From Dictyostelium discoideum (lineage: Eukaryota), in the NCBI GenBank assembly GCA_000004695.1, contig CM000151.3:5952001-6016000 (forward strand): a DNA stretch of 64,000 bases, written 5' to 3'. Shown here piece by piece: positions 1-33,806 of the stretch. The first letter of the stretch is position 1. Every line of letters starts with the position of its first letter. The notes under the pieces are model-generated. The model saw only the letters and a program-made list of their open reading frames with translations. It had not been told where the DNA came from and did not search any database. Position numbers and translations under genes: made by a program.

Positions 1-1655
1 TTGCTCTTTTTTCAGGTAGATAATTAAGCATTGGTAAAAGGAAAGCTTCGAAATCCTTTGCTTCTTGAATTGAGAATTTATACTTTTCAGTGAGAACTGA
101 AAAGAGTGGCCATTGATCAGAGAGATCAGGGATTTTTCTAAGATCACCTTTATGAGTGAAATAAACTCTTGACTCGTCGCCACCAGCGAAAATAAATCTT
201 GGTGGTTTTCCTAATAATTCGATCATCAATGCCAAATGATCGTCACTCTTTTCAAATCCTTTTCCGGATTTTGGTTTAAATAAATGATCACCTGTTGCCA
301 ATTCGAATGCCATACAAGCGGCACTCCAAATATCGACTGGAGTACCCCATTTTGCCTTTACAATTGCCTCTGGCGCTCTATATTGACGAGTTTGAATATC
401 ATCTGTAAAATGTTTATCTGTCCAACATGCATTACCCAAATCAACCAATTGAGCTCTTGGATAATGATTCTCATTAAATAATTCATTATTTTTTTTAAAC
501 TTATAACTAATACCATTTACAAATTTAAATTCTTCTGTTCCCGTTGTTGTTGTTGTTGTTGCCGTTGCTGTTGCTGTTGTAGTTGTAGTTGTTGGTTCTT
601 CTTTTTTATTTTGTTGCTGTTCTTCTTCTTTTTTATTTTCTTCTGATGAATTTAAATCCTTATTATCTGTATTTTCTTTACTAATATTATTTATTTCATT
701 TACTGATGATTTATTATCATCTTTTTTAATGTTCTTATTTTTATTATTATCTCTATCCCTATTTGATGATTTTTTATTACCTTTATTTTTAAGTTCATCC
801 TCACTATCACTATAATCGCTATGACTATCGTCACTATCATCACTATAATCATTGATATTTTGTTGTGATTGTTGTTGTTGTGGTTGTTGTTGTTGTTGTG
901 ATTGTTTATTTGATGAAGAAGTTCTATTTTTAAAATAACCATATTTTTCACTCCAAATATAATCATTTGAAGTAAAGAAATCAAATGATTTCTCCAAGAG
1001 TACATTCTCAGGTTTTAAATCGGTATGAATGATTTTACATTTAGTGTGAATGTAATCCAATGCAATTAAGGTTTGTTTCATTAATGTTTTAACCAATGTG
1101 ATTGGCATGCCACGATAACGATGATGTTTAATTAAATCCAATAGATTGTTACCCAACAATTCGAATACCATACAATAATGACGTCCATTTGGACCACGAT
1201 GTGTAAAATGGTCCAATAAACGTGCAACACATTTATCTTGTGCATTATATTTTGAAATGGCATTCAATATCTTGATTTCATCTTCTGCTGTCTCTGAATA
1301 TGTACGTGCTGATCTAACGATTTTCAATGCAACCTGTTTATAACCAATAACATTCCCTCCATTACCATTACCATTACCGTTACTTGATGATGATGTAGTT
1401 GTTGTTGTTGTTGATGATGATGATGATGATGTCGTTATTGGTGTATCTTTATCATTACATAACCAAACTGTTGAGAAATGACCCCATCCTAATTTATCAA
1501 CAACTTGATAACGATTGCCGTAAACATCATTTCTTCTTACTGGATGATATCCACCTTGTTTATAATCTTTGGTACCTTCATCTTCATTATTATTTAATGG
1601 CATAAATGATTTATTTGATGATCCGGCATCATTATCTCTATTGTTTTCATTATTA

Positions 1656-1692
<37 letters not shown>

Positions 1693-1912
1693 TTGATGTT
1701 TGTTTCTTTTTTTTATTCTTTGAGTTTGTTGACTTTGGTGTTGTTGTTGATGTTGTTGTGCTACCGCCCAATGATGTGCCACCCAATGATGTGCCACCCA
1801 ATGATGTACCGCCTAGTGATGTACCACCAAGTGATGTACCACCAAGTGATGTGCCACCTAGTGATGTACCTCCTAATGTCGTTGATGTACTATCTTGTTG
1901 TATATCAGACAT
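1..1912 (-). CDS. SR-protein-specific kinase (SRPK) family Ser/Thr kinase. The 5' end is at ~1912 (MSDIQQDST...); the C-terminus runs past the window start, so the feature is partial.
   Basis: The reverse-strand translation is continuous. N-lobe motifs: GWGHFSTVWL, VALKIVRSA, HYCMVFELLGNNLLDLIKHHRYRGMP and IIHTDLKPENVLL. A long N/S/D-rich spacer insert follows. C-lobe motifs: DLGNACW, TRQYRAPEAIVKAKWGTPVDIWSAACMAFELATGDHLFKPKSG..DDHLALMIELLG. The split kinase domain with a spacer is diagnostic of SRPK/Sky1. The ORF is not in the track because it is not closed inside the window. Confidence 0.85.
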
Positions 1913-2029
1913 TTATTTATTGTTTTATTTATTTATTTATAAAAAAAAAATAAAATAAAAAAAATAATAATATTTAGATGTGGTTATATAGTAATAAAAA
2001 AAAAAAAAAAAAAAAAAAAATTTTCAAAT

Positions 2030-2063
<34 letters not shown>

Positions 2064-2072
2064 CGATATCCA

Positions 2073-2109
<37 letters not shown>

Positions 2110-3382
2110 AAAATTATTTTTTTCACTTTTTATCTTAATTTTATATGTATTAAACCTAAATATGCATTATTCAAAAAAATAGTCAAAACAAATAAAAATA
2201 AAAAATTATATCCTTTAAGTCCATTTAAGAAAATAAATTTTTTTTTTTTTTTCTTTTTATTTCTTTTTTTTTTTTTTTTACTTTTTTTTATTTCTGTTTA
2301 AGTGATTATTATTTATTTTATATTTTTTTTTTTTAGTCAACCCAAGTTTATAAAAAAAAAGAAAAAAAAAAATAAAAATAAAAATAAAAATTGTGGTAGA
2401 AATTCCAAGTATTGTTATTATTAATATAAACCTTAATAGCAAATTTATTTACATAAATTATTTATAGAATTGTTCATCACCATAGCTTCATTCACATCTT
2501 ACTTTTTATTAAGTAGTTTAACTTTGTTTATATACGCATAATTATTTTTTGGATTTTTTTTTTTGGTTCATAGTGGGAAAAAGTAAAATCCAAAAAATTT
2601 GGAATAAATTATTTTTTTTAATAATTATAAAAAAAAAATAATATTTGCACATGACCTTTTTTTCATCACAACTTGAGCGAAAATATCAATTTGGTGGATA
2701 TTAAAAAGTTTTATTTTGATATTTTTTTATTATGATATTTTTTATTTTTTATTTTTTATTTTCTTTTATAAAAACATTTTTTTTTTTTATTTTTATTTTT
2801 AAATTTTTTTATTATTGTTTTTTGTTTAATTTAAATGTTTACTTTAAAAGGTATAAAAATAAAAATAAAAAAATAAATGAAAAATAAAAATAAATGAAAA
2901 AAAAAAATAAAAATAAATAAAAAAAAAAAAAAATAACCGATTTTTTTCATTATCGTAAATCCCAAAAAAAAAAAAATGAAAATAAAAATCTAATTTTGAA
3001 TTTTTTACTTAAAATAATTAAAGTAATTAATTTTTGATAATAATATGGGAAAAACTTTATTTATGAATTCAAATAATAAAAAAATGAAAAAAAAAAGAAG
3101 CACCATTTGGTGTTGCCAATAATTTCTTAAAAAATTTGTGATTGTTCTTTAAAAAAAAAAAAAAAAAAACCAAAAAAAAAAATTTTAAAATTTTATTTTT
3201 TTTTTTTTTTTTTTTTTTTTTTTATTTTTATAATAAATATCATTTGACGTCAGCCAAAATATTTTTTTATTTTTTTTTTTTTTTTTTTTCGAATCAATCA
3301 CATCCTTTTTTTTTTTTCTAGCAAAAAAAAGAGAATAATCCCTCATTAATAACTATTTTTTTTTTTTTTTTCTCTAACAACG

Positions 3383-3480
3383 CAACAACAACTACAACTA
3401 CAACTACAACTACAACTACAACTACAACTACAACTACAACTACAACTACAACTACAACTGCAACTACAACAACAACAACA
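3383..3480. repeat. (ACAACT)n hexanucleotide microsatellite, ~16 units.
   Basis: A perfect caactacaactaca... tandem array is visible in the sequence. Confidence 0.9.
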
Positions 3481-4944
3481 TTTTAAATCATTAATTATGT
3501 TTTTTTTATAATAATTTAATTTAGATAAGCCTCACCAAAAAAAACACACATAAAATATATATACATATATTTTAGTATTTTAGTACAAACAACAAAAAAA
3601 AAAAAAAAACCAAAAAAGAAAAAATAAAATAATAAATACATCATCCCCCTGATTAAAATATTTACTTTGATTTTTTTTTTTTTTTCTTCCACTTAAATAT
3701 TTACTGTAATATATCACAAAAAAAAATAAAAAAAAAAAATCAGGATTATATATTTGAAGTTTAATTTAATCATGTAAGATATTTTTTTTTTTTTCTTTTT
3801 TTTTTTCTTTTAAATTTTATTTTTTTTCTTGTATTTTTTTTTTTTTTGGGTTTCCTTTTTTTAAACAAAAAAAAAATCCCAACCTCTATAAATTTTATTT
3901 TTCATCATCCAAATAAATATTAAGTAAAACCTACAAATAACAATTCAGTGATTAAAAAAAATAATAAAATAATAAAATAATAAAATAATAAAATAATAAA
4001 ATAATAATAAATAAAAAATAAAAAATAAAAAATATCTAAATAAAATCATTGAATTCACACACACACACACACACACCAACCACATAATTGAATTTTAAAA
4101 TTGTTTTACACATCACACTATTTTAATTAGATAGAGATAATTAGGTACAGTTTGATTTATATGATACATGTACCTCCTACTAATACTAATATCGCTAATC
4201 AATAACTAAAATAATAATCACACATAAGCACGGATCGTTTATATCATTTGATTAAAAAAAAAAAAAAAAAACAATTATTATTGTGGTACTTCCTTAATTT
4301 TTTTTTTTAATTTTTAATTTTTAATTTTTTTTTTTTTTTTTATTATTTTTTTATTTGTCTTGTAAAAATAATTAACAATTGTGATTGTTTTTAAAACCAA
4401 TCAAAATAAAAATTAAAATAAAAATTAAAATAAAATCAACCCCACTATCACACAAAATCTCAATTAATCAAACATTTTAAATAGAATAAAAACAAATTGC
4501 AAATAAATTTTTTTATTTTTTTATTTTTTTTTATTTTTTTTTCCTAACTCTCAATATTATCTTTCTCGGGTGTGTTTTTAATATTGTTATTAATTTCTTT
4601 TACCATTTTTTTTTAAAATAAAAAACTTATTTTTTTTATTTTTTTTTTTATTTTTTTATTTTTTAATCAAAAATAATTTATTTATTTATTCATCATCCAA
4701 AAAAAAAAAAAAAAAAACATAACCAAAATATTTATTAGTATTTGTAATAAACTATATTTTAAATATTATTGTACATTAAAAAAAAAACCAAAAATTAATA
4801 TTGTAATTTATTTATTAAAATGAACATTATTTTTTAAAAAATAAAAATAAAATTAAAAATTAAAAATAAAAAGAAAACTTCATATCTCCAACTTTCCATC
4901 CCCCTCCCTTTGTAAATAAAAATAAAAATAAAATAAAAAAAAAA

Positions 4945-7304: not shown

Positions 7305-7790
7305 TTTGAATCCATACATAATTATATACTTATATAAATTAATTCATATTTATAATGTAACACAATTAAAACTATAATTAACTAAAACATTTATTGTAGA
7401 TTTAAATATTTAAAATAAAATTAAAAAAAAAAAAAAAAAAAAAATATATGTATATTAAGTAAAATGTTTATTTTTAAAAAAAACTAGATGTGAATAAAAA
7501 TTTTAAAATATTCAATATTGAGATTTTAAAAAACATAAAATGATATTGATAAATCAACTTTTTTAAGTTGGTTTAAAATTATATTACCAAAATTTGAATT
7601 TTTTTTTTTTTTTTTTTTACAGAGATTTTTTTTTTTTTTTGATTTTGTAGATCTATTAATTTGGAATTTTTTTTTATTTCCCATAAACATGGTATCAATT
7701 AACCAAATTATTAAAGGGTTGGTTAAATTTTTATTTTTTTTGTGGATTGTATGGTGTTAAAAAATGTGAACAATAAATAAATAAATCAAT
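7305..7790. repeat. Copy 1 (~480 bp, ~80% identity between copies) of an unclassified dispersed/segmental repeat family (R).
   Basis: It shares ccatacataattatat..., atatattaagtaaaa(a)tgtttattt, ttttaagttg..., ccaaaatt(t/g)gaattttttt, gattttgtag..tatttcccataaacat..attaaagg(g/a)ttggtt..tttttgtgga.. with 7955-8130 and 12790-13280. Confidence 0.6.
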
Positions 7791-8623: not shown

Positions 8624-9330
8624 TAGAAAGTGAAGATAAAAATAAATGTGTACTTCATCCAAATAAAAATTTAAAATTTTATGTTTGGATTGTAAATTTA
8701 TGCCATGTTGTAAACTTTGTACGTCTCATAAAGGTGAACATTATGGTCATAAAACTGATTCATTTGAATCATCCAACATCAAATATTCATTCATTAATTA
8801 ATGAATTTAAAGATAATATCTATCCAAAATTAATTGAAAGAAAAGAAAATGATCAAATATTATTAAAAGAATCAAATGAAACTTTCAAAGAAATTCAATC
8901 ACAAAATGATAATAATAATAATAATTTAAAGTTAAATAACTCAATCAATAAAAATAAATTCATTAAAAGTAAGTTATACTCAAATAAATAAGATTAATAA
9001 AAAAAATACTAATTCTTTGTTTTTAGTGTCTGATCACGATTTTTATATATATTCAGAGAATGATGAATCATCTATATTGTCCGGAGATTTTGAAAGTTTA
9101 GCATTCAAAGACAATTGTAACATCTTATCAAAGCTAACTAAATTACTAAACAAAGTTTTGCTTCTAAATGGATTCAATCAAAAATTAAACAAAGGTATAA
9201 TACCAGTGGGTTTTAAAGAGTTGTATATATCTAATATAAAACAAGTATTAATAATCGATTCAATTCCTAATACTGTAACAACTGTTGGCTTATGTGATGG
9301 ATTCAATCAAAAATTAACCGTATAATACGT
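8624..9330 (+). pseudogene. Truncated, frameshifted tandem paralog of the downstream B-box/FNIP-repeat gene.
   Basis: It is near-identical to 9788-10100 and 10690-11050 at the DNA level. A 1-bp deletion falls in the B-box region (aaaattttatg versus gaatttttatg). About 0.6 kb of the middle coding region is missing. The intron is retained (gtaagttatactcaaataaataag...ttttag). Only about two FNIP repeats remain, and the 3' flank resembles 11930-12140. Confidence 0.6.
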
Positions 9331-9787
9331 GAGAACATTAAAGAGTTGTATATATGTGATATAAAACAAGATTTGATGATTGGCTCAATGTCTATATTTA
9401 TAAAAGTTGTAAAAAATTACTTGATTCTTTCGTCCCTGTAGATGTCAAAATAGTAAACATATAAAATAAAAATCCTTGTGGACATATTTTTGAGTAAATT
9501 TTAACATTTTTTTTTATATTATTTTATAATATTTCATTTTATTTTATTTTGTTTTTTTTGTTCCAATATTGATACTAAAGGTAGTAAATAATTAATGTCA
9601 CATAAGAATTCTAAGGATATGAAGTGGTGATATTACAAAAAAGAATTTTTTTTATTTTTATTTTTATTTTTTTTTTTTAAAATTATAAGTTATCAAAATT
9701 ATACAAACTTTTTTTTGGCACCTATTTTTATTTTTATTTCTTTTTTTTTTTTTTTTTTTTTAAACTCAAAACAAAATAGCACACAAA

Positions 9788-11935
<2,148 letters not shown>

Positions 11936-12789
11936 TATAAAAGTTGTAAAAAATTAATTGATTCTTTCGTCCCTGTAAAAGTCAAAATAGTAAACATTTA
12001 AAATAAAAATCCTTGTGATGACATTTTTGACTAAATTTTAACACCTCCATAATTATTTTATTCTATTTTATAATATTTTATTTTATTTTATTTTATTTTT
12101 TTGTTCTAATATTGATATTAGAGGTAGTAAATGACTATTTTAATTTTATACAGCCGCCATCACTCAGTGTAAATTTGAGATTTTACTGCTGATTTGTAAT
12201 TCCATCTTCCCACCATTTTTTTTTCGCCAAGTAAGTAAATTTTCATTATTTGATTGTAAACTAATTATTAACTACCAAATAAAATTCGTTAAACAAAAAA
12301 AAGATTTTTTTTTTTTTTTTTTTTTTATTTTTTTTATTTTTTGGGGATATTCGTAAAAGACCAACTAATTCCAATATGGCTTCATCTATTGCAAATTTTC
12401 ATTTATTAAACTCTTTTATGAATATAAAAAATCAATTAAAAATTAATTAAAAATTTTTTTTTTAATATATTTTAAAATTATTTACTAATTTTTAATAAAT
12501 ATTAATTTCTAATAAATATTAATTAATTCTTTTTTATTAAAATTTTATTATCAGGATTATTTTTTTTAAATATTAAAATTATAAATAAATGATTATTAAA
12601 TGATTATTAAATTATTAGTATTTACTAAATAAAATTATGTTTTGAATTTTTTTTTTCAGTATAATAATGCTTCTGCTCAATATTTACCTTCATAAAAAAT
12701 TTGGTTTTAGAATTTGGAAAATGGTTTCTTCAAATGAAATATTCTATAATATTGATATTTACCAAGTATTATTAAATGATGAAAATAAA

Positions 12790-13280
12790 TAATAAAAATA
12801 AAATGAGGAAAATCTTCAAAATTATTAGAAAAAATAATAAAACTAAAATTAAATAAATAAAATCAAAAATAAAAATATATTAAGTAAAAATGTTTATTTA
12901 TTTATTTAAAAAAATGTTAAAAAAAATATTAAATCAAATATTCAATATTAAAAAATTAAAAAAAGTATTGAAATGATAATTATCAACCTACATTTTTAAG
13001 TTGTCTAAAAAATTTTTTCCAAAATTGGAATTTTTTTTTTTTTGACCTAATTTTTTAATTGGGAAATGGAGATTTTTTTTTTTTTTATGATTTTGTGGAA
13101 CTATTAAACATTCACTTTTTTTTTTTTTTTTTGATTTTGTAGGTATTTTAATTTAGAAATTTTATTTTTTTTTTTATTTCCCATAAACATTAACCAAAAT
13201 ATTAAAGGATTGGTTTGATTGTGTATTTTTTTTGTGGATGGTTTTATGTGCAAAAAGTATTTAATTAATGGGGAAAGCTT
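12790..13280. repeat. Copy 3 of repeat family R, flanking the FNIP locus on the right.
   Basis: See 7305-7790; the same ordered sequence blocks occur here. Confidence 0.6.
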
Positions 13281-13861
13281 CATTATAAAATATTTATAAA
13301 TTTTTAATAACATCATTGGTGGTCAATGTTCAGAATTGGGCTATAAACTCTGTCTAGGTTTAAACCAAGATGGGGGTGAACAATAAAAACTCATAACGGT
13401 CCTTCTTGTTTTAAGAAATTCCCATTTCGGGAAACACATTAAACGATCAACCACATTTTAAACAAAAGAAAAATTTGGAAATATTCCAAAAAAACTCAAT
13501 AAAAGTATCATTTAAAAAAAAAAAAACTTAAAAGGCACAAAGAAATTCCTTTAAGTTCTTCTCATAGGTAAAAAAACACCAAATATATATTATATTATTG
13601 TTTTTTATATTTTTTATAATTTTTTATTTTTTATTTTTTATTTTTTTTAATTATTTAAAAGGTTTATTTATTAAAAATTTTGTTTAATATAAGAAGACGG
13701 ATTTTATATAGAATTTAAATAAGAAGGATAGGTTAATGGTTTCTTATTTTGAAAGTTAATTATTAATTATTTCCGAGATTTTGGTTTATATATTTAGCAA
13801 TAATAGGGAAACTATTGATTCATCGAAAAATGAAAAAAAAATTGAAAAATAATTACAATGG

Positions 13862-13908
13862 ACGGTTGACAGGTATTTTGATCAAAGGTATTTGCTGAAA
13901 GGTCAACT
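13862..13908 (-). ncRNA. Class I ncRNA-like gene, a variant copy. The conserved motif reads CCTTTCAGCAA (one mismatch) and no DUSE box was found upstream.
   Basis: The minus-strand RNA reads 5'-AAGTTGACCTTTCAGCAAATACCTTTGATCAAAATACCTGTCAACCGT-3'. The 5' GTTGAC and 3' GTCAAC segments can pair as a terminal stem. The 11-nt motif sits directly after the 5' stem half, as in Dictyostelium Class I RNAs. Confidence 0.4.
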
Positions 13909-14043
13909 TATGTAATTTAAAAAAAAAAAAAAAAAAAGAGTTTAATATATTAATTTGTTTTGAAAATCAGTTTAAATAAAATCAGAATTATGTTTTTTTA
14001 AAATTTTTTACTTGTTTTTTAAATCTTTTAAATAAAAAATGTT

Positions 14044-14093
14044 TACAGTTGACAAGGGGTAATCTTCAAAGGTTTGCTGTAAGGCCAACTTGA
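14044..14093 (-). ncRNA. Class I ncRNA gene.
   Basis: The minus-strand RNA reads 5'-(tc)AAGTTGGCCTTACAGCAAACCTTTGAAGATTACCCCTTGTCAACTG-3'. It has an exact CCTTACAGCAA motif immediately after the 5' stem half AGTTG, and the 3' CAACT can pair with it. A DUSE-like TCCCACAA box lies ~65 nt upstream on the same strand. Confidence 0.6.
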
Positions 14094-14155
14094 TGTAATT
14101 AATATTTAAATGTTATACGAATTTTGTTTTGGAATTTTTAAAATAAAAAATAACT

Positions 14156-14163
14156 TTGTGGGA
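14156..14163 (-). promoter_or_regulatory. DUSE (Dictyostelium upstream sequence element)-like box, TCCCACAA on the minus strand.
   Basis: The plus strand reads ttgtggga, which gives (A/T)CCCA(C/T)AA on the minus strand. It sits at about -65 relative to the Class I RNA 5' end. Confidence 0.45.
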
Positions 14164-33631: not shown

Positions 33632-33806
33632 GCCCAAAATTACCATATTAATTTCGGCAGCCATATTAATTTCAGCCTAAAATAGTTGGTCTGTGCATGC
33701 CAAAATAATATGGCTGCTGAAATTAATATGGTATTACTAGCAGACATAAGTCCCATGCCAAAACTATCATATTAATTTCAGCAGCCATATTAATTTTGGC
33801 ATGGGA
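33632..33806. repeat. Composite palindromic repeat. A ~40-bp unit (TGCC(C)AAAAyTAyCATATTAATTTCrGCAGCCATATTAATTT) occurs as direct, inverted, direct copies, and the second and third copies form a ~38-bp-arm hairpin.
   Basis: Unit A is 33632-33677, unit B (inverted) 33696-33733, unit C 33751-33806. B is the reverse complement of C with a ~35-nt loop. It lies immediately upstream of the A32-like ATPase fragment. Confidence 0.7.

Follow-up and report, generated by a model that had tools for sequence, protein, structure and literature searches.

Class I RNAs of the Dictyostelia are recognized by a small set of shared features, namely an AAG at the genomic start, a 6-bp stem that joins the two ends of the RNA, an 11-nt motif, a 3′ CTGT and, in the DNA upstream, a DUSE promoter element at a distance of 56-64 nt from the RNA start or from a TGTG box (Kjellin et al. 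2021, PMC7919456). The DUSE has the consensus [A/T]CCCA[C/T]AA. All Class I genes found to be expressed, in four species, have this element upstream, and high-scoring candidates without a correctly placed DUSE are silent (PMC7919456). The same work describes clustering as typical of these genes, notes T-runs downstream of many of them, and suggests that they are transcribed by Pol III. We have used a class range with a median length of about 60 nt and a GC content of 32-41%. Four of the 37 curated Dictyostelium discoideum members, DdR-44 counted, are 45 nt or shorter. The genes from r41 onwards are reportedly those first described by Avesson et al. in 2011.

Here we analyse two neighbouring minus-strand loci, called A and B, in a 64,000-nt window of D. 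discoideum AX4 chromosome 2 (DDB0232429). Adding 5,952,000 to a window coordinate gives the chromosome coordinate, on the same strand, and the window as a whole has a GC content of 22.8%. It will be shown that locus A is identical to the published gene DdR-44, and that locus B is, very probably, a pseudogene, namely a Class I copy that is silent and decaying and that lies beside this active gene. Neither locus is new as such. Locus A is an annotated dictyBase gene, and locus B was scored, checked against RNA-seq and rejected by Kjellin et al. (Genome Res 31:436, PMC7919456).

The assignment of the two loci to the class was examined by means of a covariance model (CM) built from 29 curated Class I RNAs of D. 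discoideum, with DdR-44 excluded and with the 6-bp terminal stem as the only structure. Searching the whole window on both strands with the filters off gives 38.3 bits for locus A and 32.1 bits for locus B, while the third-best match has 15.9 bits. Because the two scores stand so far above the next one, both loci are genuine Class I-type sequences. The 11-mer CCTTACAGCAA, with at most one mismatch allowed, occurs at only two sites in the 64-kb window, and these are the same two loci; locus A has the perfect motif at 14074-14084, and locus B has CCTTTCAGCAA with one mismatch. In a control with shuffled windows, two or more matches with one mismatch allowed were found in 4 of 100 cases. The first-pass annotation of this DNA had described two minus-strand loci with Class I architecture, one of them with a perfect motif and the other with a single mismatch, and these claims are confirmed, the loci lying where it had placed them.

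The Rfam family RF01414 (Dicty_Class_I_RNA) also matches both loci, end to end, when an E-value threshold is applied to the local stretch, with 34.7 bits for locus A and 21.6 bits for locus B and nothing else comparable. Its gathering score is 41.5 bits, and a scan of the window at that threshold reports neither locus. The first-pass annotation had taken scores below threshold at both loci as grounds for giving up the assignment. Both loci do match a Class I model and both do fall below the RF01414 gathering score, but since locus A is a validated gene, this criterion would misfire. With the cut-offs of Kjellin et al. (CM score of at least 25, classifier score of at least 32; PMC7919456), locus A is above (32.7 and 40.2) and locus B is below (23.8 and 18.5). 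The Rfam gathering cut-off is too strict for the short Class I subtype. The scores of locus B fail the cut-offs of both Kjellin et al. and Rfam, and its 32.1 bits with our own model are well above background. A threshold of 41.5 omits validated short members such as DdR-44, which means that annotation by Rfam alone under-calls the 42-45-nt subtype.

We now consider locus A. Its sequence, GTTGGCCTTACAGCAAACCTTTGAAGATTACCCCTTGTCAACTG at 14046-14089 on the minus strand, matches the curated DdR-44 (r44, DDB_G0295515; chr2:5966046-5966089, minus strand) exactly over all 44 nt, and the distance to the DUSE, 67, is also the same. As the two do not differ at all, they are one and the same gene. The annotated RNA ends at 14046, and the T at 14045 completes the CUGU 3′ end, so that the full feature spans 14045-14089. 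The RNA has a GC content of 45%. The AAG is present at −2 to +1, the motif is intact in 11 of 11 positions, the 3′ end is CTGT, and the ends form the stem GUUGGC/GUCAAC with 6 of 6 pairs, one of which is G·U. The stems given in the first-pass annotation hold for locus B (GTTGAC/GTCAAC), whereas the register of locus A has to be corrected from GTTGG/CAACT; the G·U pair is at position 5, and the first C of the motif takes part in the sixth pair.

The promoter box of DdR-44, TCCCACAA, is located at 14156-14163 on the minus strand and is found both in the MEME output for r44 and in Table S2 (PMC7919456). Between the box and the 5′ G of the RNA there are 66 intervening nucleotides, corresponding to a coordinate difference of 67, which agrees with the first-pass claim of a DUSE about 65 nt upstream of this copy only. 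This is 3 nt beyond the 56-64 window of Kjellin et al., and DdR-44 is also without a TGTG box. Their classifier docked the gene 5 points for this, and the gene is nevertheless expressed, with 1,617-3,610 small-RNA-seq reads per library during growth and two developmental stages and with validated coverage (PMC7919456). If the distance from the DUSE to the start were fixed at about 60 nt, one might speculate that the transcript starts some 7 nt before the mature G and is trimmed afterwards.

In the order of transcription, DdR-44 comes first, followed by a 138-nt spacer and then by locus B on the same strand. The labels in the first-pass annotation were the reverse of this; by transcription the DUSE-bearing copy is the upstream one and locus B the downstream one. 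There is no open reading frame of at least 90 aa between 11703 and 14545, which places the two loci together in intergenic DNA, as a cluster. The spacer holds two T-runs on the gene strand. A T6 run at 14034-14039 (minus strand), 7-12 nt past the final annotated base of DdR-44, is a candidate Pol III-type terminator. A T19 run at 13919-13937 (minus strand) lies at −30 to −12 relative to locus B, where it may act as a terminator or insulator. A homopolymer in front of locus B had been noted at the first pass, and it is indeed there, but on the gene strand it is a T-run occupying the place of the TGTG box, and not that of the DUSE at about −60.

Locus B, GTTGACCTTTCAGCAAATACCTTTGATCAAAATACCTGTCAACCG, was matched by our model over 45 nt (13863-13907, minus strand), and including the T of CCGT at 13862 the feature spans 13862-13907. 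With 45 nt and 40% GC it is within the class range in both respects, and it is unmistakably derived from a Class I gene. It retains the AAG at −2 to +1 and all 6 Watson-Crick pairs of the GTTGAC/GTCAAC stem. The motif is intact in 10 of 11 positions, including the five that are near-universal in the Dictyostelia (T3, C6, C9, A10 and A11), and the unique core of the sequence is AUACCUUUGAUCAAAAUACC. Two positions deviate. Motif position 5 is a T, where 48 of the 49 curated Group-4 Class I RNAs of D. discoideum and D. firmibasis have an A; the sole exception among the 49 is DdR-57, which also has 0 reads. The second deviation, missed at the first pass, concerns the 3′ end, where CCGT replaces the conserved CTGT; none of the 49 curated Group-4 sequences lacks the T in question.

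As to the promoter of locus B, the pattern [AT]CCCA[CT]AA does not occur within the 150 nt upstream, and the 138-nt spacer does not contain a single CC dinucleotide. No TGTG box was found for locus B either, its expected position being taken up by the T19 run. The best DUSE-like octamer, AAACATAA at 13988-13995 (minus strand), is 81 nt away, lacks the CCC core and has a FIMO score of −0.28, and it does not look functional.

The same octamer makes it possible to find the locus in the published data. Locus B corresponds to a hit at chr2:5965863-5965907 (minus strand) in the Infernal outputs of Kjellin et al. (PMC7919456). The first of their models, v1, which is based on D. discoideum only, gives it 30.8 bits (genome-wide E = 0.0019), and the scores with v2, v3 and v4 are 31.9, 27.6 and 25.1 bits, respectively. 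The final pan-dictyostelid model at maximum sensitivity, v6, gives 23.8 bits with a genome-wide E of 0.64 (PMC7919456). Table S2 contains two unnamed candidates with a CM score of 23.8, and of these ddi_can_3 is the one listed with AAACATAA at 81 and without a TGTG box; the other one is listed with AATCATAA, an octamer that is absent from locus B. The classifier arithmetic can also be reproduced (23.8 − 0.276 − 5 = 18.52). Since the octamer, its distance and its FIMO score all match the table, locus B is ddi_can_3. This candidate has 0 reads in six libraries, two for growth and two for each of two stages of development, and it was neither validated nor given a DdR name (PMC7919456). The paper does not discuss it individually, nor does it call it a pseudogene.

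The published small-RNA data thus bear out the first-pass proposal of small-RNA reads for locus A, and they do not do so for locus B. The description of the two loci as a pair of Class I genes can be kept as far as the Class I assignment and DdR-44 are concerned, but for locus B, which has no DUSE, a classifier score of 18.5 against the required 32 and no reads, it was an overstatement. The further suggestion that locus B could be a pseudo-copy or a differently regulated member is supported in its first half and unsupported in its second.

It should be pointed out how the zero count is to be read. In the published pipeline, RNAs of 18-70 nt were size-selected and only full-length 50-nt reads were mapped (PMC7919456), so that a mature RNA of 45-46 nt from locus B would itself be invisible. 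The 50-nt filter disfavours the short members (42-45 nt), which all have low counts. Even so, DdR-44 and DdR-42, which are of the same size, are detected in the six libraries in which locus B has no reads (PMC7919456). The 44 nt of DdR-44 followed by TAAACA make exactly 50 nt before the T6 run, and the reads assigned to this gene probably derive from such 3′-extended species. Downstream of locus B, the first T-run is at about +14. The predicted primary transcript up to that point is at least 50 nt long, so that locus B, if transcribed to a similar extent as DdR-44, would have shown up in the data. The absence of reads is still meaningful, for three stages of one strain.

Folding calculations turned out to be uninformative. 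For both loci the terminal stem competes with a 5′ hairpin, the z-scores (+0.40 for locus A and −0.91 for locus B) are not significant, and the 6-bp stem is not part of the minimum free energy (MFE) structure of either; the energies are weak across the class. The A-to-U change in the motif of locus B adds an A5-U10 pair to the competing 5′ hairpin and thereby displaces the terminal stem from the MFE structure, and reverting it in silico restores the stem.

On the basis of these results, we infer that locus B is a pseudogene rather than a conditionally expressed gene. The scenario that we propose starts from DdR-44 as a DUSE-driven and probably Pol III-transcribed gene for a Class I RNA of 44-45 nt. 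The ends of this RNA would pair in the 6-bp stem with its one G·U pair, and the conserved motif CCUUACAGCAA would be displayed beside the stem. The RNA is presumably part of a cytoplasmic RNP with the RRM protein Rnp1A and would as such affect early multicellular development, a Class I role that has been shown for DdR-21 only. Locus B would be the non-functional remnant of a gene of the short subtype (42-45 nt), produced by an old duplication that was either local or dispersed. It appears to have kept the architecture of the RNA body, while the DUSE/TGTG promoter was either lost or never gained. The T6 and T19 runs separate it from the promoter of DdR-44, and termination of Pol III at these runs would block read-through. 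With no promoter of its own and with the T-runs in between, locus B is proposed to be untranscribed and without RNA function, and it would seem to have begun to gather substitutions at positions that are otherwise invariant. The decay is slight, as the 6 of 6 stem pairs and the five universal motif positions are all intact, and this could reflect either a recent loss or some residual constraint.

Alternative explanations were also considered. One option is that locus B is a genuine but differently regulated Class I gene, with a promoter other than a DUSE or with expression under conditions that were not sampled, such as late culmination, spores, stress or growth on bacteria, yielding a variant RNA with the motif CCUUUCAGCAA and a CCGU 3′ end. 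The near-intact body (AAG, 6 of 6 pairs, 10 of 11 motif positions, with the five pan-dictyostelid ones among them), the length and GC content in range, and the T-runs 14-30 nt downstream, which could serve as terminators, would all be compatible with this, and the RNA-seq data, limited to three stages, are skewed against RNAs of less than 50 nt. However, six libraries contain not one read from locus B while the neighbour of the same size has thousands, and the expressed Class I genes of four species all carry a DUSE, with high-scoring sequences that lack one being silent. In addition, the 138 nt upstream are devoid of CC, a T19 run lies at −30 to −12, and the two substitutions fall on positions that are conserved in 48 of 49 and 49 of 49 sequences. 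We therefore regard a differently regulated gene as unlikely. The narrower version, in which a variant RNA with CCUUUCAGCAA and CCGU is transcribed without a DUSE at some unsampled stage or stress, is very unlikely in our judgement; if true, it would make locus B the first DUSE-independent Class I member and a natural motif mutant.

Another option is that locus B is reached by read-through from the promoter of DdR-44, with a dicistronic precursor from which two stem-bounded RNAs would be released by processing. The geometry would allow for this, locus B being on the same strand, 138 nt downstream and without its own promoter, and it was left open in PMC7919456 whether Class I RNAs arise by processing of longer transcripts beginning at the TGTG box. 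The T6 run 7 nt after DdR-44 and the T19 run just before locus B would, on the other hand, stop Pol III, and reads from locus B are entirely missing from the very libraries in which DdR-44 is readily detectable, making such a precursor highly improbable. That locus B resembles the class by chance, as a non-homologous sequence in AT-rich intergenic DNA, can be regarded as effectively refuted already, and we give it hardly any credence. It is true that the Rfam score of 21.6 is far from the gathering score of 41.5, that the E-value with the final pan-dictyostelid model is 0.64, and that the one-mismatch motif appeared twice or more in 4 of the 100 shuffles. But the species-specific model gives 32.1 bits against 15.9 for the next-best match, the E-value with the authors' D. 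discoideum-only model is 0.0019, and the match is full-length, with the AAG, a perfect consensus stem and the expected spacing. Furthermore, the genome of 34 Mb has only 37 curated genes, and the sequence shares its strand with one of them at a distance of 138 nt; we estimate a prior of roughly 4e-4 for a random match to fall within 200 nt of any curated gene. What remains as the preferred reading is the silent and decaying copy.

Concerning the origin of this copy, a duplication is a natural inference from the sequences, and similarity does not discriminate between copying locally from DdR-44 and copying from elsewhere. Locus B and DdR-44 are identical at 36 of 48 positions when gaps are allowed, with the common heptamer CCTTTGA. 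The 120-nt flanks of the two loci, upstream and downstream, show no likeness beyond the T-runs, as 75 of 500 and 256 of 500 shuffles, respectively, score equally well. The idea of a recent tandem duplication of DdR-44 is accordingly unsupported, the flanks being dissimilar and the core of locus B being no closer to DdR-44 than to DdR-42. A metagenome scan for orthologues of the two-locus pair found nothing.

A few other features of the window deserve mention. DUSE octamers are not enriched in it, with 12 observed and 10.4 expected, and apart from that of DdR-44 none of them precedes a Class I-like sequence. There is, however, a conserved element of about 150 nt in two copies, at 7626-7770 and 13118-13270, both on the plus strand. 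Each copy carries the perfect DUSE octamer TCCCATAA (at 7679-7686 and 13179-13186), followed by ATTAACCAAAWTATTAAAGGRTTGGTT, a core for which 0 matches are expected by chance. In the first copy, the DUSE is followed at about 76 nt by a TGTG-box-like AAATGTG. The second copy is located about 600 nt beyond locus B and is followed by a GC-richer stretch (0.29-0.32 GC, roughly 13200-13500), which has no match in Rfam and whose only open reading frame, of 37 aa, is on the opposite strand. The repeated element could be the promoter of an unannotated pair of DUSE-driven ncRNAs, or else a shared mRNA promoter.

On the plus strand at 8665-12099 there is a segmental duplication, in which 8665-9562 is repeated within 9849-12099 with 81-99% identity. 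At 10781-11982, a unit of 129 nt is repeated in tandem about 8 times, and this array overlaps the plus-strand open reading frame at 10692-11702 and extends past its end. Together, the duplications and the tandem repeat indicate a tandemly duplicated family of protein genes that adjoins the intergenic region with the ncRNA loci. Further away, at 33705-33793, a near-perfect palindromic hairpin matches the Rfam family mir-7131 (RF03716) on both strands, with 86.3 and 85.6 bits and thus above the gathering score of 74; it is a known D. discoideum miRNA precursor.

We finally compare the pair with related systems, starting with DdR-44. A plausible ortholog of this gene, as judged from the sequences, is DfiR-9 of D. 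firmibasis (JH723862.1:84463-84511). It shares with DdR-44 the unusual GTTGG 5′ stem half, with its G·U pair, and the ACCCC...TGTCAACTG tail, with 38 identities in 48 aligned positions, and it is likewise a member of a two-gene cluster, the partner being DfiR-10. The variable cores of DfiR-9 and DdR-44 are different, and DfiR-10 is 1.8 kb off and intact, unlike the relic next to DdR-44.

Locus B belongs by its length to the short subtype of 42-45 nt, together with DdR-42, -44, -45 and -62. Its closest relative overall is DdR-42 (chr2:4084606-4084652), which also has 45 nt and is identical to it at 36 of 45 positions without gaps and at 14 of 21 in the variable core. DdR-42 is located 1.9 Mb away and differs from locus B in that its motif is perfect, its 3′ end reads CTG, a DUSE is present at a distance of 60 nt, and the gene is expressed, with 61-606 reads. 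In its silence, locus B resembles r43, ddi_can_1 and ddi_can_2, which have no properly placed DUSE and 0 reads, with CM scores of 31.6, 31.9 and 27.1, respectively. It resembles DdR-57 in the A-to-T change at motif position 5 and in the lack of reads, but DdR-57 was kept among the named genes and has a near-canonical DUSE as well as a TGTG box. The two loci analysed here offer a clean natural example of what Kjellin et al. claim, the necessity of the DUSE for Class I expression, in that two near-identical bodies are found 138 nt apart and the copy with a DUSE is expressed while the copy without it is silent. The silent sequences r43, ddi_can_1, ddi_can_2 and DdR-57 are all at other genomic locations, whereas locus B directly adjoins an active member of the class.
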